From Nitrososphaerota archaeon (GTDB lineage Archaea; Thermoproteota; Nitrososphaeria; Nitrososphaerales; UBA57), in the NCBI GenBank assembly GCA_002713205.1, contig PAVW01000003.1, positions 16,201-28,924 of the forward strand: 12,724 bases of DNA. Reading direction: 5' to 3'. This document shows positions 170 through 11,125 of the stretch, one piece after another. Below the pieces are notes generated by a model that saw nothing but the letters and a program-made list of their open reading frames with translations, did no database searches and was not told the DNA's origin. Numbering within the stretch: position 1 is the first letter of the stretch; each line of letters opens with the position of its first letter. Both the position numbers and the translations under genes were made by a program.

Positions 170-1540
170 TTATAGTGTTTTTTCTATTATTGTAATACTT
201 CCTATTTTTGAATTACTAGGATCAGCATACCAGATATTCCCCTGTTTATCAATAGTTAACCACTGCACTAAGGGCGCTACTGATGGTATTTGAATTAGTT
301 TTGTTAATGCGGTTTCTGGATCCAGAACAGCTATCTTGTCTGTCACATGTTCTGCATACCATATATTTCCATATCTATCTTCAATCATCCCCGAAACCAA
401 TGCATATTCACTCTGCACAACATATCTATCAAACGTTAATGCTATCGGATCAAATCTTGTTATATTAGTACCACCATGTTCTCCAATCCATATCTTCCCA
501 TTAGATTCTTGTAAGAAAGACGCTGGTGTTACTAATCTTGTATCTATTGGTTGATATTCTACAATTTCGTTTGAAATAGGATCTAAAAGACCTATACTTC
601 CTCTACCAATTTCCGTAAACCACACACGTTCAAATTCATCTATCAGAATTGCTGCAGGGTGAATATCTTCATCTAAGTCAAATATCTTGAAGTTTTCACT
701 CTTGGAATCAAATCTTATAATCTTGCTTTTATTTATTATGGCAATCCATACATTATCATTAGAATCAATTTGTAAATCAATCATGAATCCTTCTATAGGA
801 GGTCTGAAAGTTCTTGTTACATGTTCGTCTGGATCTATATAGCCAAAAGTAATCGTCTTAGTATCAGTGAACCAAACTCTCCCTTTACTATCCATTGCCA
901 ATTTCATCGATGATTCCCCATCATGACTAAAGAATTCAAAGTCTTTAGTTTCAAGATTGAATTTCCATATTCCAGGATTAATAATATCACTTATCCATAT
1001 GACATCTCTTTTTTTATCGTAAAGAGGCACAAGAGGAAGTGATTTTGGATCCAATATTGAATATTCTTTTAAAATAAATTCAAGTTCGTTTAAACTAATC
1101 TTTGGAACTTCAATTACGTTCCCTATATGTCCCCTTGCAATCTTATTGCTATTCTTATCAAAAACTAACCATTCATAGGATGAATTTGTCTTACCTATAA
1201 CTATCACTTGCAAAGACTCACCAGATTTGACAGGTTGATTGTCTGTATGTACAGTTACTGTACTCTGATCAATCCTATCCCTATCCCATCCTCGAGCTTT
1301 TATGAATTTGATGTCACCATCTATTATTTTGAGTTTAAATTCGAATATAGGCTGTGCATTGAAATTCTTAATTACTAGTAATGTGAGTTTATTCTTTTGT
1401 TTCATTGATATAGAAACATCATCATGACTAACAGACTCTTCAGCTAATACACTAGTGATTCTGATTTGTTGTGAAGGCACTACTAATACTATAAAGAGAA
1501 CCACAACTAGAAATGTAGTGATAATTACTTTTAGTTTCAA
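170..1540 (-). CDS. Secreted or membrane-anchored seven-bladed beta-propeller protein (Vgb/NHL-type repeats) with an N-terminal Ig-like domain
   Basis: 456-aa ORF with a TTG start (caa at 1538-1540 on +). It has an N-terminal hydrophobic signal/anchor (KVIITTFLVVVLFIVLVVP). Seven repeats of about 40-45 aa each carry a [VI]W[FIY] strand (VIWISD, RVWFTD, NVWIAI, RVWFTE, KIWIGE, NIWYAE, NIWYAD). These are typically followed by I-x-x-[FLI]-D-P turns, the pattern I associate with streptogramin-lyase-like (COG4257, from memory) and NHL propellers. Function is not inferable. Confidence 0.75.
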   Translation of the reverse strand: MKLKVIITTFLVVVLFIVLVVPSQQIRITSVLAEESVSHDDVSISMKQKNKLTLLVIKNFNAQPIFEFKLKIIDGDIKFIKARGWDRDRIDQSTVTVHTDNQPVKSGESLQVIVIGKTNSSYEWLVFDKNSNKIARGHIGNVIEVPKISLNELEFILKEYSILDPKSLPLVPLYDKKRDVIWISDIINPGIWKFNLETKDFEFFSHDGESSMKLAMDSKGRVWFTDTKTITFGYIDPDEHVTRTFRPPIEGFMIDLQIDSNDNVWIAIINKSKIIRFDSKSENFKIFDLDEDIHPAAILIDEFERVWFTEIGRGSIGLLDPISNEIVEYQPIDTRLVTPASFLQESNGKIWIGEHGGTNITRFDPIALTFDRYVVQSEYALVSGMIEDRYGNIWYAEHVTDKIAVLDPETALTKLIQIPSVAPLVQWLTIDKQGNIWYADPSNSKIGSITIIEKTL

Positions 1541-1644: not shown

Positions 1645-2103
1645 TTAAACTGATTGAACAACAAACTGCCCCATATGTAATGGATGCCCTTCACCACAGA
1701 ATATAGTACAGAAATAAGTGAAAATACCTGTTTTGTCCGCCGTGAACTTGATTACAGATTGGGCATTGGGACTGATATGTATACTACCGATTTCTGGATA
1801 ACCATCTATGGCAAACCCGTGTGGTATATCCAAACTCTCTAACATAATAGTTACTGTCTGACCTTCATATACAGTTATAGAACAATAATCGAACCTCCAC
1901 TGATATGCATGCATCGTTATTTCTATTGTATCTTTGGATGAATCAGCTTTGAAAACATCCTCGTAACACTCGTTAGCATTTTGTAATCGTGTACCAAGAA
2001 TTTCATCAGATTCATCTATTCGCTGCTGCATAGATATAAAAACCATGAATATAGCAACAGTGATTATACCACCTGTCACACCTGCCATTATCATTCTATT
2101 CAT
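1645..2103 (-). CDS. N-terminally membrane-anchored CuA-type cupredoxin (cytochrome c oxidase subunit II / NosZ C-terminal domain-like)
   Basis: 152-aa ORF with one N-terminal TM helix (MAGVTGGIITVAIFMVFISM). The cupredoxin ligand pattern is H95 in LDIPHGFAIDG, then C132-TIF-C136-GEG-H140-PL-H143-M144 (codons 1672-1710). This compares with canonical CuA H...C-x3-C-x3-H-x2-M (e.g. CSEICGxxHxxM). No oxidase subunit I gene is adjacent. Confidence 0.8.
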   Translation of the reverse strand: MNRMIMAGVTGGIITVAIFMVFISMQQRIDESDEILGTRLQNANECYEDVFKADSSKDTIEITMHAYQWRFDYCSITVYEGQTVTIMLESLDIPHGFAIDGYPEIGSIHISPNAQSVIKFTADKTGIFTYFCTIFCGEGHPLHMGQFVVQSV

Positions 2104-2275: not shown

Positions 2276-2830
2276 ATGAACATTATGAAAAATATAGTGT
2301 TAGGAATAGCTGTAACAGCAGTATTTGCCACAATAATAGCAATATCATTGACGTCGGTAGTAGATAGTACAGAACCAGAAATTGGTACTGACGCTGTCAC
2401 TTTATTGCTCAATTACAAAAGAATACCAGCAGGAGACTTCATACACGTATATGATTCTACACCATTCCCTATAGCACAAGGACATATTGCAGTAAAAGTA
2501 GATTGTAATGAAGCTGGACACGGTATTGCATCACTTGCAATAGGTGTTGCACCAGAATTAGAAGTGAAAAAGCTGACAATGGATAATATGGTTCATGAAT
2601 TATCTTCCCATGGAGATATGTGTCTTTACCATATAGATTTACCACCAGAACATGGTTCGATGGTAACGGATGTAGCACTAATGAATACTAGTAGCAAATC
2701 AATAAGGCTTGGACCAACTGCCACAGTAGTTATGCATGTACAAAGCTTCGGTGACGAAATGGAACACAAAGAAAGTACAGACATGAAGCACGGAGATATG
2801 GGAAAAGAAGGTATGAAAATGGATAAATAA
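2276..2830 (+). CDS. N-terminally anchored extracytoplasmic protein with a Met/His-rich C-terminal tail (putative metal, likely copper, binding)
   Basis: 184-aa ORF with an N-terminal TM/signal anchor (IVLGIAVTAVFATIIAISL). The last 32 residues, MHVQSFGDEMEHKESTDMKHGDMGKEGMKMDK (2732-2827), contain 7 Met and 4 His. It is transcribed divergently from the cupredoxin gene. The start could also be the ATG at 2285. Confidence 0.7.
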   Translation: MNIMKNIVLGIAVTAVFATIIAISLTSVVDSTEPEIGTDAVTLLLNYKRIPAGDFIHVYDSTPFPIAQGHIAVKVDCNEAGHGIASLAIGVAPELEVKKLTMDNMVHELSSHGDMCLYHIDLPPEHGSMVTDVALMNTSSKSIRLGPTATVVMHVQSFGDEMEHKESTDMKHGDMGKEGMKMDK

Positions 2831-2892: not shown

Positions 2893-3435
2893 ATGATGTA
2901 TAGAATGTATTATTTTTCATCATTTATTATTCTTACAGTGATAATATTAACAGGAGTTAATGTGGTATTTGCTCAGGAAACAGTAGAAGATGAAAACAAA
3001 CCGATGATAGCGCCTACAGATAAGGGTTCCATTGATGTCGAACTCTCATGGTCGCCTATCCCGTTAGAACCAGAGCAGACAACGCAATTGCATATACGTT
3101 TCCTTCAGAAAGATAAAGTGACACTACAACAACATATAGATTATAAAATATTTGTAGAGAATGATGGAATAGAAGTCTTCAGAATACCTCTCACACATAC
3201 GAACCCTGGTGAAGTTACCATACCATACGCTTTTACATCAACAGGTAGCTTCTTGATAGGTGTTGACGTTGAAGGTATACTCTTTCAACCCATATCGAAA
3301 GAAACCGCTACATTTTCAGTGGTAGTAGTACCAGAATTCCCAATTAGTGTGATGTTTATAATGACCATTGTTATAGCTGCTACTATAATTTCGATAAGAA
3401 TGAAGCCTTACGCAAAATCTATATATAAAAATTAA
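2893..3435 (+). CDS. Secreted single-module Ig-like protein with a PEFG-CTERM-like archaeosortase sorting signal
   Basis: 180-aa ORF with a signal peptide (FSSFIILTVIILTGVNVVFA|QE). One module of about 100 aa follows (IDVELSWSPIPLEPEQTTQLHIRFLQ...GSFLIGVDVEG). The C-terminus is tripartite: VVPEFPIS (PEFP codons 3331-3342), a hydrophobic helix VMFIMTIVIAATIISI, then basic RMK. Confidence 0.8.
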   Translation: MMYRMYYFSSFIILTVIILTGVNVVFAQETVEDENKPMIAPTDKGSIDVELSWSPIPLEPEQTTQLHIRFLQKDKVTLQQHIDYKIFVENDGIEVFRIPLTHTNPGEVTIPYAFTSTGSFLIGVDVEGILFQPISKETATFSVVVVPEFPISVMFIMTIVIAATIISIRMKPYAKSIYKN

Positions 3436-3446
3436 TTGTTTAGAAA

Positions 3447-4874
3447 ATGATGAAAAATAATGTATTACTATACATGTTTATAACATCTGCATTTATTGTT
3501 TCAATGATAAATTTTATACCTGTATTTGGTCATGGTCTGGCGGGTGATATGCCTCCACCAATTGATCTAAGTGGTAAAAATGTAACTGTTTTCGTTAAAA
3601 TGAACCCTGCTACGTTATCTGCTGCTGCTCCTGAAGATGCAACTATAGGAATAAGATTTTTTGATGTCACAACGGATGAGAACTTACAACAGGTAACATA
3701 CAGGATAGCGATTAAGAAAGATGGTAATTTGTTAATGAATGACTGGTTCTATCATCCTAATGGTGATCTGACGATTAAGATAAAACCCAAAGATACTGAA
3801 AAAGTAAGAATCTATGGCGATAAAGAACCACAACTCGGAGGATGGTATGGTAGGGGTGGACCACCAGTTGTTGAAGCGCCTATATTCCTTGAAGGTGGTC
3901 TATACAATATCTATGTAGAAATATTCACTGTAGGTACAACAAGGCAAATACTTGATCCACCATTACAATTTGATGCTTGGGTTAGTGTGGCGGAAGATAA
4001 TTCATTCACTGTAGTTAATAATGATAATGTATATCCAGTAATAATCAGAAGTTACTTCGATACGATCAATAAGCTTGAGTTCGAAGATGATAGTAATATG
4101 TTAAGATTTAGCATGCCGTTTAATTGGGAACCAGAATTTGTAGAATTTGTATCTATGATACATGAAGAAATTATAATTCCAAAAGATTTTAAATCATTAG
4201 TTGAGTCTGATACTTTCCAAGCATATGTGAATGATATTCCAGTAAGAGATAGAACGTTGCTTGTTGATCCTTATTCTTTTGAAGATAAATTAGTAATACA
4301 TTACTTGATAGCAACTCAGGAACTTATCAATATAAGTGAACAAATTTTAACAGATTCAACATATCCAGAAGAGATGATATTCACACTTAAGCCAATTGAA
4401 GGAACACAAACTAGAGAAGACACTAACATGAATTTGATTACTGATAATGGAAAAGTAAGAATACTAGTATCGTGGGATCAAAAAATGATCGAACCTGATA
4501 AACCTGTGAATTTTGATATTGTGTTTTTCGATGAGAATAAAAATAGTATACTCCGGGATGTTAATTATAATTTTAAGATATTCGATGATAGAGGTAATGA
4601 GATCTTCGTTAAAAACAATATTCTTAGTAATGAAGGTATAGATAGACTAACATACACGTTTGAAAATGAAGGTACTATAACATTACAGGTATATGTTATG
4701 GGTACAGGTTCGTTTCCATCTCAAATGGACACCTCCTTCATGGGAATTGTTGAAGGTTCGATAAGTGTTGTGCCAGAATTTCCTATAGGAGTAATTATAG
4801 CTATGGTAGGAGCCATTTCGGCTGTACTATTGTTCACACATAACAGATTAATGCCTAATCATTTGAAAGTTTAG
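3447..4874 (+). CDS. Large secreted multi-domain protein with a PEFG-CTERM-like sorting signal (paralogue A)
   Basis: 475-aa ORF starting 11 nt after the stop of 2893-3435 on the same strand, so it is likely co-transcribed. It has a signal peptide (FITSAFIVSMINFIPVFG|HG). The C-terminal module VRILVSWDQKMIEPDKPVNFDIVFFD is of the same type as in 2893-3435. It ends in VVPEFPIG (PEFP codons 4773-4784) + VIIAMVGAISAVLLF + THNR. It is colinear with 4855-6225. Confidence 0.85.
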   Translation: MMKNNVLLYMFITSAFIVSMINFIPVFGHGLAGDMPPPIDLSGKNVTVFVKMNPATLSAAAPEDATIGIRFFDVTTDENLQQVTYRIAIKKDGNLLMNDWFYHPNGDLTIKIKPKDTEKVRIYGDKEPQLGGWYGRGGPPVVEAPIFLEGGLYNIYVEIFTVGTTRQILDPPLQFDAWVSVAEDNSFTVVNNDNVYPVIIRSYFDTINKLEFEDDSNMLRFSMPFNWEPEFVEFVSMIHEEIIIPKDFKSLVESDTFQAYVNDIPVRDRTLLVDPYSFEDKLVIHYLIATQELINISEQILTDSTYPEEMIFTLKPIEGTQTREDTNMNLITDNGKVRILVSWDQKMIEPDKPVNFDIVFFDENKNSILRDVNYNFKIFDDRGNEIFVKNNILSNEGIDRLTYTFENEGTITLQVYVMGTGSFPSQMDTSFMGIVEGSISVVPEFPIGVIIAMVGAISAVLLFTHNRLMPNHLKV

Positions 4875-6225
4875 TTAACGATGGTCTAATTCTTATGATT
4901 ACTACTGCAGATACTAATGTGATCATCGTGAATAATGGACCAAATGGAAATTCTGGTATTACAGTAAATAGTAACGGTGCAGCCTCTCCAGTATTATTTA
5001 TATTTTCAATCAGTAACAGTATAGTACCTGTCTGTTCTTTTGTAAAAGTATAATCTTGTACTATAGCCCCTATTGGAGCTTTATGGTGTTTTCTAAAGAT
5101 CTCTGTTCCATCTTTTAGGAGTACAAAGTCAGCAGTAGAATGTCTTAATGTATCAAATGTTTTTGGATCTCTCAATGTAATTATGAATTTTGTATTCGTA
5201 TCGGGTTCTATAAGAGCAGGACTCCATGAAATTTGTAACAGGAAATTTTCTTTTCCAGACATAATTTGCACCGGGAACTTTGGAACTTCCCTTGGAATAA
5301 GAGAAAAGACAGCAGTATTCTGCTCGGATTTTTCCTTTTGTGCTATTCTTATTAACTTGTCCTTTGATATCACGAAATGAACTATTCGTGTATTCTCATA
5401 TGAATAATCATCAATCAATATTTCTCTATTAGAAAGTTCAACACCATTTATTGTACCTACATAACTATTAGACATTAACTCTGTCAAATCATGAGGAATA
5501 TGTACCTCTTCATGCACCAATGGAACCTGGCTAAGGTAGTTTACATTCCAGTATAATGGCATTGAAAAAGTTATCATTCGTAAAGATTCATCATAATAAA
5601 TATTGCTTATTTGATCGTAGTAAGTTTTGATAAAAATATCATGTTGCTTACCGATATCATCCAATACCTGATGACGTGTGGTTTTACCTATACTTGCATA
5701 TAGATCGAAGTTTAATGGTTCTGCAAGTTTATTCTCATACTGTCCCAAGGATAAAACACTAATATTGTAATGATAAAGACCTCCGTCAAGTACTGGGCCT
5801 TTTACCACTGCAGGAATTTCCCGATTAGTGACTACTGCGTTGTAAAGAGATTCTCTATTGCCGATCACTTCGTTTTTTTCGGTATCAGTATGTTCAAATC
5901 TAATCGCCACTATACCATCACTACTATGGAACTGATCGTCAAGTAGAAGTTCATTAGTGCGCATCATCTTTACACGCAAAGTTATATGGGGAATAGTAGT
6001 GTCTGTATTAACTTCACGAATACTTATGAAAGCAGTACCAACTCTATCATCTTCTTCAAGAAATACTGGTTTCATATCTAGTGTGACGTAAATCCTTACA
6101 CCATCAACCAAAATCTGTCTTGATTCATCAAAACCCAATCCTTGCCCGAACGAGGGTAATTGCATGGTGCTGAATAGCAATACCCCTGATACAATTAACA
6201 TAAAAATTGGAATGGATGAATTCAT
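4855..6225 (-). CDS. Large secreted multi-domain protein with a PEFG-CTERM-like sorting signal (paralogue B)
   Basis: 456-aa ORF with a signal peptide (IFMLIVSGVLLFSTMQLPSFG|QG). The C-terminal module is FLLQISWSPALIEPDTNTKFIITLRD. It ends in VIPEFPFG (PEFP codons 4945-4956 on the minus strand) + PLFTMITLVSAVVII + RIR. Blocks of similarity to 3447-4874 run along its whole length. Its stop (4855-4857) lies inside the 3' end of 3447-4874. Confidence 0.85.
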   Translation of the reverse strand: MNSSIPIFMLIVSGVLLFSTMQLPSFGQGLGFDESRQILVDGVRIYVTLDMKPVFLEEDDRVGTAFISIREVNTDTTIPHITLRVKMMRTNELLLDDQFHSSDGIVAIRFEHTDTEKNEVIGNRESLYNAVVTNREIPAVVKGPVLDGGLYHYNISVLSLGQYENKLAEPLNFDLYASIGKTTRHQVLDDIGKQHDIFIKTYYDQISNIYYDESLRMITFSMPLYWNVNYLSQVPLVHEEVHIPHDLTELMSNSYVGTINGVELSNREILIDDYSYENTRIVHFVISKDKLIRIAQKEKSEQNTAVFSLIPREVPKFPVQIMSGKENFLLQISWSPALIEPDTNTKFIITLRDPKTFDTLRHSTADFVLLKDGTEIFRKHHKAPIGAIVQDYTFTKEQTGTILLLIENINNTGEAAPLLFTVIPEFPFGPLFTMITLVSAVVIIRIRPSLTKLSND

Positions 6226-6250
6226 TTAAAAAAAAGTATAGTTTCTCCGA

Positions 6251-6262
6251 TAAAAATATTTA
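6251..6262 (-). promoter_or_regulatory. Putative TATA box for 4855-6225
   Basis: The minus strand reads ttaaatatttttatc, centred about 31 nt upstream of the ATG at 6225-6223. A T8 run (A8 on +, 6228-6235) sits between it and the ATG. That run could alternatively be the terminator of the upstream gene 6270-6956. Confidence 0.3.
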
Positions 6263-6269
6263 AGCGATA

Positions 6270-6956
6270 CTAGAAATCTTCATTTCTTCTTTTACGAGTC
6301 AACGAAACTATTGCTATGATTACACCAGCAGCACCAAGTCCCATCCCTAACATGCCAAAATTATAAGCATTTTCTGTATCGTAACGAAAATCAGTAACTA
6401 TTCCGATACTCTGTTCTGTCTTACTCTCCACATTCCTGATCTTGTCCGACATCTGATCAACTGTAGCTTGTAATTGATTCACAGAAGACTGTATCTGCGA
6501 TGTAAGGTTCTTCAATTCTGTAGATTCTACAGAGATATCGGGAAATGATATCTTCTTTTTATCCTCAACATCTTCCACAGGAATCTCTGCGTCAACATCA
6601 TTGTTGCTAACAATACCTTGTATCACGATCATGTAACTACCAAGCCTAGTAGGTATTATTGGAGAAGTATAGAGACCTAACTCTTGAGTAGGTTCGATAT
6701 CTAGTATTTTTGTAACACCGCCATACTTTATTTCCGCCTCTAGACTTTTGGGATCGATAATAAGCGGTTTAGATTCTTTTTTAAATTCTAACACTATAGC
6801 ATTGAGCTCCCCCACAAGTGGTGGTTCGTTAATCCATCCAGTTTTTATAGTAATATCTCCAACATGAATCTCCGTATGAGCATAAGCAGAATTAAGAACA
6901 GAGATAGAAAGCATAAATGTTAAAAATACAATTATTGAACATCTAACTATATACAT
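6270..6956 (-). CDS. Secreted, C-terminally anchored protein with a predicted N-terminal His (CopC/YcnI-like design), a coiled-coil stalk and a TM + basic tail
   Basis: The ORF track starts at 7028, but that codon is TTG and adds 24 non-signal residues. The first ATG (cat at 6954-6956 on +) gives MYIVRCSIIVFLTFMLSISVLNSAYA|HTEIHVGD, a textbook signal peptide. The mature protein begins with His, followed by a beta-rich domain (ITIKTGWINEPPLVGELNAIVLEF). Next come a heptad-like helical segment (LKNLTSQIQSSVNQLQATVDQMSDKIRNVESK), a TM helix (MLGMGLGAAGVIIAIVSL) and TRKRRNEDF. The family call is inference. Confidence 0.7.
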   Translation of the reverse strand: MYIVRCSIIVFLTFMLSISVLNSAYAHTEIHVGDITIKTGWINEPPLVGELNAIVLEFKKESKPLIIDPKSLEAEIKYGGVTKILDIEPTQELGLYTSPIIPTRLGSYMIVIQGIVSNNDVDAEIPVEDVEDKKKISFPDISVESTELKNLTSQIQSSVNQLQATVDQMSDKIRNVESKTEQSIGIVTDFRYDTENAYNFGMLGMGLGAAGVIIAIVSLTRKRRNEDF

Positions 6957-7188
6957 AGAAATGATATTTTTATTTCCACATATTACTTTAACGAAAATTC
7001 CATAATTCTTATCAATTGATTTGTACAACCCTATATATCTCTGTAAACTTGATATTTAACAACTCACTATTCATGAACTACACCTCAATATTGATATATG
7101 GCTATAAAGGCTATATTTCGAAATATATGCAAAGGTTTATGGATAATCACAAGGAATTATTGAATAACTAATAAAATTGGTGTATGAT

Positions 7189-8757
7189 ATGAAATGGAAG
7201 ACATTAGAACATAATGGTGTTGTATTCCCTCCTGAATACAAGCCTAAAGGCTTTAAGATAAAGATCAAAGAAAAAACTATAGAGCTCAATATACAGCAAG
7301 AAGAGATGGCTGTTGCATGGGCTAAGAAGAAGGATACTCCATACGTACAGGATCAAGTTTTTGTGGAAAATTTCGTTAAAGATTTTCTTAGATTGTTTTC
7401 TCCAGAGTTCAGAGATGCTACTATAAATGATATTAGCTTTAGCGAGATCTATGAGTGGATGAATAAAGAAAGTGAAGTTGTTATAGACAAGGAAACCAAG
7501 AAGAAACTAACAGTCGAAAGGAAGAGAATAAGAGAGGAACTAAAGGGTAAATATGGTATAGCCAATGTTGATGGTCAGACCTTCGACATATCCAACTGGA
7601 TGGTAGAACCTCCAGGTATATTCATGGGTAGAGGTAAACATCCATTACGAGGTAAATGGAAACCCAGAATTAACCGTGAAGATGTAACTCTAAACCTTGG
7701 AGAAGATGTAAAAGTGTCTCCAGGAGACTGGGGTCAGATCGTACACGATCATGATTCCATGTGGCTTGCAAGATGGATTGATAAATTAGTTGGTAAAGAG
7801 AAATATGTATGGCTTTCAGATGCTGCCACTTTAAGACAAGAACGAGATAAGGATAAGTATGATAAAGCAAGTAAGCTTAGTCAACAGATAGAGAAAGTTA
7901 TCAATAAGACCTACAAAGCAATGAAATCGAATAACATCAAAGAATGTAAGATAGCTACCGTATGCTATCTAATATACAAACTCGCAATGAGGGTAGGTGA
8001 TGAAAAAGATCCAGATGAGACAGACACGGTTGGTGCTACAACATTAAGGGTGGAGCATATGAAATTAACCGATAGAATTATAGAATTTGATTTTCTGGGA
8101 AAAGATAGTGTTAGATGGCAGAAAAGCATAGAGTTTGACGGTAGGAATAATGTAATTTATGAAAATATGAGGAAATTTATTAAGGGAAAGAAAGATGATG
8201 AATTGATATTTTCGGGTATAACTTCAAGACATGTAAACAATTTCTTTAATAATATAGTTCTAGGGTTAAGTGCAAAAGTTTTTAGAACTCATCTTGCTAC
8301 AGAAATTGTTAGGCATTATCTGTCAAGTGTTGATAGTAAGATTACAAAAAGTTCTGAATTTGTAAAGATATATCATGTAAGAGTGGCTAACCTTGAAGCT
8401 GCAATAACATGTAACCATAAAAAGGCTCCAACAAAGAATTTTGAACAGATATTAGATAAGAAGCGTGAGAAGATTAAGAATATGGAAGAGGCTAAACCAA
8501 ATACCAATAAACAGAAGGAAAAACTCAAGGAGCGAAAGGAGAAGGCAGAACTTCAGTTGAAATTGGCTGAAAGTACTAAGGATTACAACCTTGGAACATC
8601 TCTTCGTAATTACATAGATCCTAGAGTGGTCAAGGCATGGGCAGATCATGTAGATTTAGAGTGGAAGAAGATCTATACGAGTGCGTTACAAAGGAAGTTC
8701 TTGTGGGTAGAGAAGGAAACGCCAAGATGGCAAAAGATAGTAATTAAATCACATTAG
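7189..8757 (+). CDS. top1: DNA topoisomerase IB (eukaryote-type topoisomerase I)
   Basis: Motifs match human TOP1 as I recall it. KWKTLEHNGVVFPPEY matches KWKFLEHKGPVFAPPY. TVGATTLRVEH matches TVGCCSLRVEH (Arg). FLGKDSVRW matches FLGKDSIRY (Lys, codon 8101-8103). AKVFRTH matches AKVFRTY (Arg). ITCNHKKAP matches ILCNHQRAP (His). A Lys/Glu-rich coiled-coil linker follows, then LGTSLRNYIDPR matches LGTSKLNYLDPR, with the catalytic Tyr codon at 8611-8613. The ORF-track start at 7177 is TTG, so I prefer the ATG at 7189 (MKWKTLEH). Confidence 0.95.
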   Translation: MKWKTLEHNGVVFPPEYKPKGFKIKIKEKTIELNIQQEEMAVAWAKKKDTPYVQDQVFVENFVKDFLRLFSPEFRDATINDISFSEIYEWMNKESEVVIDKETKKKLTVERKRIREELKGKYGIANVDGQTFDISNWMVEPPGIFMGRGKHPLRGKWKPRINREDVTLNLGEDVKVSPGDWGQIVHDHDSMWLARWIDKLVGKEKYVWLSDAATLRQERDKDKYDKASKLSQQIEKVINKTYKAMKSNNIKECKIATVCYLIYKLAMRVGDEKDPDETDTVGATTLRVEHMKLTDRIIEFDFLGKDSVRWQKSIEFDGRNNVIYENMRKFIKGKKDDELIFSGITSRHVNNFFNNIVLGLSAKVFRTHLATEIVRHYLSSVDSKITKSSEFVKIYHVRVANLEAAITCNHKKAPTKNFEQILDKKREKIKNMEEAKPNTNKQKEKLKERKEKAELQLKLAESTKDYNLGTSLRNYIDPRVVKAWADHVDLEWKKIYTSALQRKFLWVEKETPRWQKIVIKSH

Positions 8758-9022: not shown

Positions 9023-10360
9023 ATGTTAATTCGTAACTTGTTGGGCTATAAGATAAAAAATAAAGAATGCATATATTGTTTTTTCGTATTCATTACAATC
9101 ATATCGTATTTCAATCTAGCTTACGCGCAGGACTATACATCAGAATCACTACTTATGACAGTCTTTACCAATGGAAAAACCCTAGTTGAATACAGATTAA
9201 GTACTAATGCTACAGTTCCTATATCAACAGTGCCGTTGTTTGGTAATGTATTTGAGCAATTGATAACTATTAATGAAGATAACCTACCTATTGATAATAG
9301 AATGCAAAATGGTTCATTGGTTATGGATACATTTGGTGTTTCTACTATATTCGTAATATATACAACTCCAGATCTTGTAAACGGAAAAGACAAGATCTGG
9401 ACCTTTACTGTAGACTCACCTATAGATACTTCTATAAGATTACCCGAAGAAAGCATCATAATCGGCTTAAACCAGATGCCGAATTCGATCAAGTTATACA
9501 AAAACCAATACGTGTTGATTATGCCAGAAGGTCATAACGAGATTAGTTATATTATAAGTACTCTATACACAAAAGAGCAAACCATAGTAGCTTTAAGCGA
9601 GGCAGAGAAAATTATAGAAGACCACAAGAATAAGGGTGTAGTTGTTAGTAGTGCTGAAAGTAAATTGAATGAAGCAAAGAATGCTTTTGATAATGCTAAG
9701 TATACATATGCAGAAATTCTTGCCAATGATGTAAAGACTATTACCAATAATACTAGTTATATCGCAATACTTGCAAGCAATGCATTAAGTGAAGCCAAGA
9801 CAACTATAAATGAGAACAACAAACAGGGTTTTGATATTTTCAATGCGAACCAGCTTTTTGGTCAAGCAGACCAAGAATACATAAACGGAAATTACGATGA
9901 AGCATTAAACTTAGCAAAACAAGCAAAGACTATTGCGTTAGATACAAGAAATGATTCAGTGATTTCTTTTGATCTATTATATTTAATTACTGGTATTATT
10001 ACGATGTCTGCTGTAGCTGGTACTGTTGTGTATATACACTTCAGAAAGAAAACTGTGATAGGAAAAACTTCGTCTAGAATAATCAATGGGCTTGTAGTTA
10101 AGAAAAGGAGAATCATAAATCTAACTAAGATATTAACTGAAAAACCTTATCTGCGAGAAGATGATAAAGATGTTCTAAACTTCATTGTAGAAAACGGTGG
10201 AGAGGTGTTTGAAAATGAAATCAGAGACAGATTTGATCTCCCAAAGACTACTGTATGGAGATTGGTTAAGCGTCTGAAACGTGAAGATCTCGTTGATATA
10301 GAGAAAGTTGATAGACAGAATCTAATAAGAATTAGGGAACAATTTACCAAAACTGACTAA
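9023..10360 (+). CDS. Membrane-tethered winged-helix transcriptional regulator with a large extracytoplasmic domain
   Basis: 445-aa ORF with a signal peptide/anchor (CIYCFFVFITIISYFNLAYA|QD). A beta-rich ectodomain of about 150 aa is followed by two helical repeats of about 50 aa (9596-9940). One TM helix follows (FDLLYLITGIITMSAVAGTVVYIHF, from 9968). The cytoplasmic C-terminus (from about 10145) is DVLNFIVENGGEVFENEIRDRFDLPKTTVWRLVKRLKREDLVDIEKVDRQNLIRI, a MarR/TrmB/ArsR-type HTH plus wing. The architecture resembles what I recall as COG2512, membrane-associated regulators. Confidence 0.8.
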   Translation: MLIRNLLGYKIKNKECIYCFFVFITIISYFNLAYAQDYTSESLLMTVFTNGKTLVEYRLSTNATVPISTVPLFGNVFEQLITINEDNLPIDNRMQNGSLVMDTFGVSTIFVIYTTPDLVNGKDKIWTFTVDSPIDTSIRLPEESIIIGLNQMPNSIKLYKNQYVLIMPEGHNEISYIISTLYTKEQTIVALSEAEKIIEDHKNKGVVVSSAESKLNEAKNAFDNAKYTYAEILANDVKTITNNTSYIAILASNALSEAKTTINENNKQGFDIFNANQLFGQADQEYINGNYDEALNLAKQAKTIALDTRNDSVISFDLLYLITGIITMSAVAGTVVYIHFRKKTVIGKTSSRIINGLVVKKRRIINLTKILTEKPYLREDDKDVLNFIVENGGEVFENEIRDRFDLPKTTVWRLVKRLKREDLVDIEKVDRQNLIRIREQFTKTD

Positions 10361-10425: not shown

Positions 10426-10521
10426 GCCGGGGTAGCTCAGCCTGGTTAGAGCGCCAGTCCTCCATACAAAGGGGCTAAACTCATAATCTGGAGGTCGCGG
10501 GATCGAATCCCGTCCCCGGCA
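10426..10521 (+). tRNA. tRNA with anticodon CAT (elongator Met, or Ile2 if C34 is agmatidinylated), containing a 21-nt intron
   Basis: Cloverleaf folded by hand. The acceptor GCCGGGG (10426-10432) pairs 7/7 with CCCCGGC (10514-10520), and the discriminator is A10521. The D arm is GCTC-AGCCTGGTTA-GAGC, the variable loop is AGGTC, and the T arm is GCGGG-ATCGAAT-CCCGT. The anticodon arm CCAGA-CTCATAA-TCTGG (CAT at 10482-10484) forms only after removal of 10458-10478. CCA is not encoded. G1-C72 argues against an archaeal initiator. Confidence 0.85.
10458..10478 (+). other. tRNA intron at a non-canonical position (within the 5' strand of the anticodon stem, between positions 30 and 31)
   Basis: tcctccatacaaaggggctaa interrupts CCAG|ACTCATAATCTGG. 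The canonical 37/38 reading fails: it would put C at position 33 and a T-T mismatch at 31-39. I could not convincingly draw the bulge-helix-bulge motif by eye. Confidence 0.65.
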
Positions 10522-10603: not shown

Positions 10604-11125
10604 GTGAAGTTTTTTACCAGTATAGGAATATCTATATTTTTATCTCTACTGATTCTTAACCCAACTACAAGCTCTAACGCCCATCAATTGTTTAATTCTG
10701 AAGAAAGAAGAATTGGTGGTTATATTATGCAGATCGGTACAGAGCCAGAAATACCAGCAGTTGGAAAACAGATCAAAATACTATTCAGAGCAAGTGACCG
10801 TGATTATAATGATTTAATTGATGTAAAAATTGGTATGCGAATATACAAAGATGATGTGTTATTAGAAGAATTACAACCGAGAATTTTAAGTGATGGACAT
10901 TTCGATAAGGAATATACATTTACTGATGCTGGTATTCATATAGTTGAAGTAGATCTGTATACATGGAAAGGTAACGTGATAACAGAAAAGTTTAACATAA
11001 GTACTCTAAATCCGTTTGGATATATATTCTATTCAATGGTAATTATCGGGGTATTATTTCCGGCATCTTTATTTGTATTTCTGTTATTCCATAAAAAAAT
11101 TAAAGGAAAAAATTTCACAGTGTAA
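10604..11125 (+). CDS. Secreted single-module protein with a predicted N-terminal His and an NPFG + TM + basic C-terminus
   Basis: 173-aa ORF with a GTG start and a signal peptide (ISIFLSLLILNPTTSSNA|HQLF). An Ig-like module follows (IMQIGTEPEIPAVGKQIKILFRASD...GIHIVEVDL). The C-terminus is NPFGYIFYSMVIIGVLFPASLFVFLLF + HKKIKGK. The N-terminal segment resembles that of 6270-6956 (G-x-I-x3-G-x3-EP-x3-VG-x4-I). Confidence 0.7.
   Translation: MKFFTSIGISIFLSLLILNPTTSSNAHQLFNSEERRIGGYIMQIGTEPEIPAVGKQIKILFRASDRDYNDLIDVKIGMRIYKDDVLLEELQPRILSDGHFDKEYTFTDAGIHIVEVDLYTWKGNVITEKFNISTLNPFGYIFYSMVIIGVLFPASLFVFLLFHKKIKGKNFTV

Follow-up and report, generated by a model that had tools for sequence, protein, structure and literature searches.

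Why do two related surface-protein genes of a Nitrososphaerota archaeon of the ammonia-oxidiser type run into each other tail to tail, so that the same base pairs encode the ends of both, and does this arrangement serve a purpose? The question is raised by a stretch of 12,724 nucleotides (contig PAVW01000003.1, positions 16,201 to 28,924 of the forward strand), the whole of which is referred to below as the window, and by two convergent genes within it that we call A and B. The explanation that we favour, and hold to be reasonably probable, is that A and B are ancient, functionally diverged surface-protein paralogues ending two convergent units, and that their overlap is a consequence of compaction which the unconstrained and probably cleaved tails tolerate. 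Under this explanation, the two would belong to a large uncharacterised family of secreted surface proteins in the Nitrososphaerota, and both genes would be part of a copper-handling cluster conserved in this branch of the phylum. Each would be the last gene of its own small unit (a 180-aa gene followed by A, and a 252-aa gene followed by B), and in this lineage the 3' ends of the two units would have come to overlap. The overlap would be restricted to codons past the sorting-signal helix, the least constrained part of the proteins, and by analogy with other archaeosortase substrates this tail would probably be cut off at anchoring. Such a tail being both little constrained and probably removed, an overlap within it would be tolerated and would persist as a by-product of compaction, and it would not be a purpose-built regulatory device.

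Paralogy and shared 3' ends of A and B

The genes and their common segment are as follows.

3447..4874, plus strand: gene A, an open reading frame (ORF) of 475 aa with a predicted signal peptide (residues 1-28), followed by three beta-sandwich domains and then a sorting signal of PEFG-CTERM type.
4855..6225, minus strand: gene B, an ORF of 456 aa, paralogue of A with the same architecture; its predicted mature N-terminus is Gln28.
4855..4874, both strands: the two-strand coding stretch of 20 bp, read directly from the DNA.

The ORFs and a reading of the DNA confirmed the layout given by the original prediction, in which the genes are convergent, with stop codons at 4872-4874 (A) and 4855-4857 (B) and a coding overlap of 20 bp. 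The stop codon of A is TAG (4872-4874, plus strand) and that of B a minus-strand TAG (4857-4855), which appears as 'cta' at 4855-4857 of the plus strand. Positions 4855-4874 hold the last five sense codons and the stop codon of A, likewise those of B, and part of one further codon of each gene; the amino acids encoded there are the tails of A and B, past the membrane helix. Since stop codons set both of its ends, the overlap does not depend on the choice of start codons. By their coordinates the two genes have no intergenic space between them, and it follows from the geometry that a full-length transcript of either gene runs antisense to the 3' end of its partner, both as had been claimed.

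Many full-length homologues were found for both ORFs (226 matches for A and 121 for B), and the orthologues are syntenic. The orthologues of A at three related loci (L001, L002 and L009) share 67% identity with it and those of B (P0122-P0136) 55-72%, and intact, conserved copies of both genes are present in five or more lineages. With real ORFs, each stop codon inside the partner on the opposite strand, and an overlap kept in relatives, A and B form a convergent overlapping pair. The C-termini encoded in the window were found again in independent public assemblies (B in P0121, P0244, P0245 and P0247; A in P0001, P0241 and P0242), so the overlap is not the result of an assembly frameshift.

A and B are colinear over their full length, as first proposed, and pairwise statistics lie far above shuffled controls. 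Residues 2-475 of A were aligned by BLASTP with residues 1-453 of B (28% identity, 50% positives, E 2e-59), and the Smith-Waterman score was 515, where 300 shuffles of B gave 42.7 +/- 6.9 (z = 68); the same procedure applied domain by domain gave z = 34, 28 and 13 for the three domains. Every sequence block quoted earlier for the pair was located in the proteins, and a common C-terminal module and sorting signal were borne out. The description of the pair as an 'inverted duplication', if this is taken to mean a local and recent event, was not supported: A and B are not each other's closest relatives in a neighbour-joining tree built from 69 family members over 447 columns (100 bootstraps, midpoint root). 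A joins its 67% orthologues and next Nitrosopumilus 'peptidase' proteins together with Nitrososphaera proteins such as Ngar_c26530, and B joins its own orthologues and, weakly, 600-aa Nitrososphaera proteins bearing another type of sorting signal. The tree distance between A and B is 1.75, and for each copy more than 20 proteins from other lineages are nearer. The midpoint root separates the two, the bootstrap values being 68 (A side) and 31 (B side); deep bootstraps are modest (31-79), and the exact topology is uncertain. Independently of the tree, a Nitrosopumilaceae contig (L017) carries a B-like (36% identity) and an A-like (35%) gene at a distance of 6.4 kb from each other in the same cluster of copper genes, and the split between A and B therefore predates these lineages. 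Tree distances and this contig together lead to the conclusion that the A/B duplication is ancient, the tail-to-tail layout being a later, lineage-specific rearrangement.

A third subfamily, here called 'A2', is approximately 33% identical to A. Members of it are among the extra full-length paralogues present in the same clusters (L014 830-2254, minus strand; L008 4341-5756, minus strand; L010 8720-10180, plus strand; L012 4374-5777, plus strand; 27-34% identity to A), and there are therefore at least three family members per genome.

The overlap in related genomes

The arrangement of B and the length of its overlap were compared between the window and related loci.

Window: A and B tail to tail, overlap 20 bp, length modulo 3 = 2.
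L001 and L009: A and B tail to tail, overlap 30 bp, length modulo 3 = 0.
L002, L003, L014 and L015: A and B tail to tail, overlap 33 bp, length modulo 3 = 0.
L007: B against a gene with an A-type tail, overlap 27 bp, length modulo 3 = 0.
L010 and L011: B against a small PEFG gene, overlap 20 bp, length modulo 3 = 2.
L008: B divergent from A2, no overlap.
L012: B in tandem behind A2, followed by a multicopper oxidase gene, no overlap.
L017: B-like gene against the CopC-CopD fusion, overlap 4 bp.

A synteny comparison had been proposed as a check on whether the convergent overlap is conserved. The overlap does recur in related lineages, with a length (20, 27, 30 or 33 bp) and phase that are not fixed. 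In the phase-0 lineages the stop codon of B lies antisense to a Leu codon that is conserved in the A tail. In the window, the codon-aligned antisense of the A tail reads LNFQMIRH-stop, similar to B tails elsewhere (SMNFHQIRK-stop and QLNFQWVRN-stop), and the B tail itself is one frame off and ends in SLTKLSND-stop; the resemblance indicates that a small indel shifted the last codons of B in the window. Indels of 4-7 nt are present in a DNA alignment of the junction. The overlap always lies inside the 7-13 residues past the membrane helix, which are the most variable and poorly conserved part of the family proteins. The overlap is thus old within the clade, yet plastic in length and phase.

The displaced tail of B bears on a different explanation, in which one of the two copies is decaying, and a frameshift or the loss of a stop codon has lengthened a 3' end to give the overlap. 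The tail does lie in another frame than in the orthologues, through a small indel, but the shift touches only about 10 residues past the membrane helix. B is otherwise full length, is 55-72% identical to many orthologues and keeps all invariant residues; its tail is identical in independent assemblies, and A is equally conserved. Decay is accordingly very improbable, and a pseudogene was dropped from consideration in view of the intact, conserved full-length orthologues. An assembly frameshift as the source of the odd tail was ruled out by the presence of that tail in independent assemblies.

Convergent genes with little or no space between them are frequent in the thaumarchaeal loci examined: unrelated convergent pairs there had spacings of -19 bp (L016), -4 bp (L017), +9, +12, +37 and +39 bp. 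The pair with the longest overlap among these, on a Nitrososphaera contig, consists of ComA-like and NUDIX genes (L016 13894-14880, plus strand, and 14862-15389, minus strand; 19-bp overlap).

If the A-B overlap were instead a regulatory device, polymerase collision or a 3' RNA duplex would make expression of the two genes mutually exclusive or reciprocally tuned. The geometry forces an antisense overlap of at least 20 nt between full-length mRNAs, and the distance to possible termination signals could extend it, the first T5 run lying 286 nt beyond the stop codon of A and approximately 240 nt beyond that of B; termination at U-tracts would give an overlap of several hundred nucleotides. Archaeal termination involves U-tracts together with aCPSF1 (PMC8716108, PMC7515710), and if this applies here the overlap of the A and B mRNAs probably exceeds the 20 coding bases. 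Tail-to-tail overlap moreover recurs in at least four diverged A-B lineages. The variability of the overlap in length and phase, with indels at the junction, argues against such a device, as do the lack of a conserved sequence or structure at the junction, the occurrence of B without overlap in L012 (tandem) and L008 (divergent), and the equally tight unrelated convergent pairs of relatives. Against mutually exclusive surface variants, in particular, stand the difference at a near-universal position (His29 in A, Gln in B), the different operon partners, and the retention of both genes, intact and conserved, across five or more lineages. We regard a regulatory purpose as unlikely.

Searches for signals at the junction were negative. 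No conserved sequence element was found there, and a bacterial-type terminator/promoter scan of 3300-6400 returned two terminator-like sites (chance level), neither close to the junction. RNA folding of both 3' regions was no more stable than that of shuffles (z = -1.2 and +0.8). An 18-nt inverted repeat (4766-4783 / 4946-4963) was considered as a junction signal and rejected, as it consists of the two facing V-P-E-F-P coding stretches.

Protein architecture and the copper-gene neighbourhood

The segments of A and B to which the following results refer are these.

4773..4871, plus strand: sorting signal of A (residues 443-475) with PEFP, a hydrophobic helix and an HNR...K tail, from the TIGR04296 match and the helix of the AlphaFold2 (AF2) model.
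4858..4956, minus strand: sorting signal of B (residues 424-456) with PEFP, a hydrophobic stretch and an RIR...K tail, from inspection and alignment to A.
4419..4769, plus strand: C-terminal beta-sandwich module of A (approximately residues 325-441), macroglobulin (MG)-like.
4960..5283, minus strand: C-terminal beta-sandwich module of B (approximately residues 315-422).
4161..4301, plus strand: candidate metal-site stretch of A in the middle domain (His239, Glu241, Asp274 and His285), from conservation.
3531..3533, plus strand: codon of His29 of A, the predicted first mature residue, after [AVST]-[FY]-[GA]; cleavage predicted from the -3/-1 rule.

For A, an AF2 model based on an alignment of 71 sequences is all-beta with a mean predicted local distance difference test score (pLDDT) of 90.1; in it a hydrophobic helix at the N-terminus precedes the three beta-sandwich domains, and a C-terminal helix (447-468) follows them. 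For the first two domains modelled alone the mean pLDDT was 93.5. The middle domain, for which such a model had been proposed as a check, is one of the three beta-sandwich domains of the model. Pfam and NCBIfam contained no family matching the N-terminal two domains, even at E <= 10, and Foldseek returned nothing better than E 1e-3 for them from the PDB (TM-scores approximately 0.2). PDB matches for the whole model or these two domains, which were discarded, were limited to generic immunoglobulin, MG and arrestin-like two-sandwich folds (TM approximately 0.2). The sole similarity in a sequence profile search of the PDB was to an MG domain, in the C-terminal module; this module gave a profile match to alpha-2-macroglobulin (E 2e-4), and Foldseek matched it to 2p9r, an MG domain (target-normalised TM-score 0.78). 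By BLASTP, the C-terminal modules are homologous to the stand-alone 180-aa protein that is encoded upstream of A (E 7e-15 to A and E 3e-12 to B). With Pfam and NCBIfam, A, B and the small neighbouring genes gave weak sub-threshold matches only, and no family.

Both proteins close with the PEFG-CTERM pattern, in which V-[VI]-P-E-F-P precedes a hydrophobic helix and basic residues (the C-terminal end is VVPEFPIGVIIAMVGAISAVLLFTHNRLMPNHLKV in A and VIPEFPFGPLFTMITLVSAVVIIRIRPSLTKLSND in B). TIGR04296 (PEFG-CTERM) matched residues 441-468 of A with 16.5 bits (E 0.0049), under the curated 25-bit cut-off, and gave no match to B at E <= 0.01; as the model is only 30 positions long, a score below its cut-off is weak evidence against membership, and A and B are putatively assigned to PEFG-CTERM on the motif, not on the hidden Markov model (HMM) score. 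No archaeosortase-type gene was found within the 12.7-kb window. Little has been published about PEFG-CTERM proteins, and the papers found contain no functional data for the A/B family.

The family is large: a profile search returned 281 cluster representatives (50% identity) at a threshold of E <= 1e-30, a number that rose to 818 at E <= 1e-10. By inspection, hydrophobic N-termini are followed by the family-wide motif [AVST]-[FY]-[GA] ahead of the His, and this motif, then H-G, closes the predicted signal peptide. Among 237 members, the His29 column holds His in 216, Gln in 14 (B-clade members), Asp in three and a gap in four; a basal B-clade member (P0136) has retained the His. Three residues of the middle domain, His239, Glu241 and His285 of A, are present in all 237 sequences, and Asp274 in 235 of them. 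B retains every family-invariant residue. Because of the change from His to Gln at the predicted mature N-terminus, A and B are most likely functionally diverged, and not interchangeable surface variants.

The genes adjoining A and B, and a nearby cupredoxin gene, are located as follows.

2893..3435, plus strand: 180-aa gene, 11 nt upstream of A, encoding a lone C-terminal module with PEFG-CTERM.
6270..7028, minus strand: 252-aa gene, 44 nt upstream of B, encoding a secreted protein with a C-terminal membrane helix; conserved neighbour of B.
1645-2103, minus strand: gene of a CuA-type cupredoxin, 152 aa, membrane-anchored, with CoxB/NosZ-like matches.

The window has a G+C content of approximately 32% and encodes several secreted proteins that terminate in P-E-F-P and a hydrophobic helix, and its close homologues are in Thaumarchaeota, Nitrososphaerota and Nitrososphaerales metagenome-assembled genomes. 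A and B are each preceded by a different small gene; the 180-aa gene is probably co-transcribed with A, and the 44-nt gap between the 252-aa gene and B contains a T8 run and an AT-rich, TATA-like stretch. The block consisting of the 180-aa gene, A, B and the 252-aa gene is kept in L001, L009, L002, L014 and L015. Adjoining the orthologues are a CopC-CopD-beta-propeller fusion gene and plastocyanin-like genes, and in other lineages a gene for a two-domain multicopper oxidase. The gene set of the Nitrosopumilaceae contig comprises the B-like gene, a CopC-CopD fusion, a 252-aa-like gene, two plastocyanins, a 180-aa-like gene and the A-like gene. At two Nitrososphaera loci (L016 and L018), family members occur without a copper context.

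The conservation of the block raises the possibility that A and B work jointly, for example within one heteromeric complex at the surface or as carriers acting one after the other in a pathway, and that linkage keeps the two units one inherited, co-regulated block. It would agree with the retention of the four-gene block in the window, L001, L009, L002 and L014, with the same gene set, including CopC-CopD fusion and plastocyanins, in the Nitrosopumilaceae, and with the fact that every examined lineage having B keeps both paralogues. The two genes are, however, 6.4 kb apart in L017; in L008, L010 and L012 B is paired with A2 instead (approximately 33% identical to A), and linkage is possible without overlap. 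Joint action is likewise unlikely as the explanation, if slightly less so than a regulatory overlap. The likelihoods assigned to the different explanations are separate judgements and are not meant to sum to one, linkage being compatible with the favoured explanation of an overlap tolerated in the tails.

Our best guess for the A/B family, based on the neighbourhood and on residue conservation, is an extracytoplasmic role that may be related to copper. A more specific proposal can be made, in which the family is a new class of extracytoplasmic copper-binding proteins (through the N-terminal His and/or the invariant H-x-E, D and H), B is a His-to-Gln variant with an altered or lost metal site, and the tail-to-tail overlapping layout balances expression to copper supply; taken as a whole, this is improbable, to about the same degree as a regulatory overlap.

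Several points weigh against the explanation by ancient divergence and tolerated overlap. The A-B overlap persists across lineages with only approximately 60-70% protein identity; one nonsense mutation in a dispensable tail could erase it, and its persistence could mean weak selection for the arrangement. The 3' end of B overlaps three different partners (A, the small PEFG gene and CopCD), oftener than the unrelated pairs sampled, and the unlikely regulatory role discussed above counts on the same side. We know of no PEFG-CTERM protein for which removal of the tail by an archaeosortase has been shown. The suggested copper role is drawn from neighbourhood and residue conservation, and the Nitrososphaera members in L016 and L018 lack the copper context.

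Further genes of the window and its relatives were noted in passing. Next to the cupredoxin gene, 170-1540 (minus strand) encodes a beta-propeller protein (Vgb_lyase/SGL-like), which is fused to CopC-CopD in related loci (approximately 950 aa). A 184-aa secreted protein with a Met/His-rich tail, MEHKESTDMKHGDMGKEGMKMDK, is encoded at 2276-2830 (plus strand), its gene standing beside the cupredoxin gene in L001, L010 and L012; it has a faint, sub-threshold Pfam match to BIM1-like copper acquisition factor (E 0.062). In the 252-aa protein (6270-7028, minus strand) and in a 173-aa secreted protein (10604-11125, plus strand) a His directly follows the apparent cleavage site (AYA|HTEIH and SNA|HQLF), a feature also found family-wide in A/B; neither protein has a Pfam family. 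The 445-aa product of 9023-10360 (plus strand) begins with a hydrophobic segment, continues with a large domain that is presumably external and another membrane segment, and closes with a DNA-binding winged helix (MarR/TrmB/DUF7343-like); it is a possible membrane-tethered regulator close to the cluster. A eukaryote-type DNA topoisomerase IB, a hallmark of Thaumarchaeota, is encoded at 7177-8757 (plus strand), with all three Pfam domains and E-values down to 1e-64, and is an aid to the taxonomic placement of the window. Rfam placed a tRNA at 10426-10521 (plus strand; 53 bits, full model), and ARAGORN found none in the window; the match spans 96 nt and the tRNA is therefore probably intron-containing. 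In the orthologous locus L001, a gene for a DDE transposase (4310-5296, minus strand) lies between the plastocyanin-like and 180-aa genes, showing that the cluster is open to rearrangement. In N. viennensis, copper limitation induces CopC/D and adjacent exported proteins of unknown function (PMC7785015). The copper-limitation promoter motif of that organism, TTCSGSMTTTGWACYANT (PMC7785015), had a single match in the window, with three mismatches, at 10733, which is at chance level.

Significance and comparison with known systems

The overlap is a fresh example of a known phenomenon and of modest interest, adding little by itself; it is a clean multi-genome case, confined to disposable sorting-signal tails, that shows drift in both length and phase. 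The A/B family is of more value than the overlap, as it consists of large, well-folded, phylum-specific surface proteins without annotation, linked in Nitrosopumilus-type genomes to CopC-CopD, plastocyanins, cupredoxin and multicopper oxidase. Ammonia-oxidising archaea depend heavily on copper, and the family members are reasonable candidates for a part in its acquisition and delivery to enzymes outside the membrane, being conserved and apparently secreted, with a His predicted at the N-terminus and a His/Glu/Asp/His set that does not vary.

In their sorting signals, A and B resemble the PEFG-CTERM proteins (TIGR04296; a class of exosortase/archaeosortase substrates, with PEP-CTERM and PGF-CTERM) in the tripartite C-terminus of P-E-F-[PG], helix and basic residues, in the predicted signal peptide, and in their origin from a thaumarchaeal genome where many such genes are clustered. 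They differ from them in having the motif PEFP and not PEFG, and in HMM scores below the cut-off. The C-terminal module of A is like the MG domains of alpha-2-macroglobulin and complement C3, by profile and by the 2p9r fold, whereas A has a single module, with neither thioester nor bait region, and the similarity is to a generic beta-sandwich.

Copper proteins with a histidine brace, in which an N-terminal His binds the metal by its amino group and side chain along with a second His, include CopC, YcnI, the periplasmic PmoB/AmoB subunit and LPMO/BIM1-like proteins. A would be similar to these in its predicted first mature residue (His, then Gly), its beta-sandwich fold, its extracytoplasmic location and its further invariant His, Glu and Asp residues, and the A/B genes lie beside those for CopC-CopD, plastocyanin, cupredoxin and multicopper oxidase. 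Unlike the histidine-brace proteins, A and B have no sequence or fold match to those families (no Pfam/NCBIfam match at E <= 10 and no Foldseek PDB match below E 1e-3), and the B clade is without the His.

Transcriptional-interference switches with convergent promoters are known from coliphage 186 (pR/pL) and plasmid pCF10 (prgQ/prgX), where the promoters lie near each other and it is 5' regions or regulatory RNAs that overlap. The A and B units likewise stand face to face and their transcripts are bound to overlap; in contrast to those switches, A and B are genes of approximately 1.4 kb that meet at their extreme 3' ends only, and no regulatory RNA or conserved element was found.

A further comparison is with the convergent overlapping gene pairs of prokaryotes, which were reportedly surveyed by Rogozin et al. 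in 2002. In the survey of such pairs by Palleja et al. 2008 (PMC2478687), convergent overlaps made up 7% of 42,055 well-characterised overlaps, and convergent was the only orientation whose long overlaps proved real. The overlap of A and B agrees with the surveyed ones in that the ORFs are real and conserved, and that it is stop-defined, short (20-33 bp) and kept in related genomes. It differs from them in that the partners are paralogues of each other, that both ends encode tails of one type of sorting signal, and that length and phase shift between lineages.

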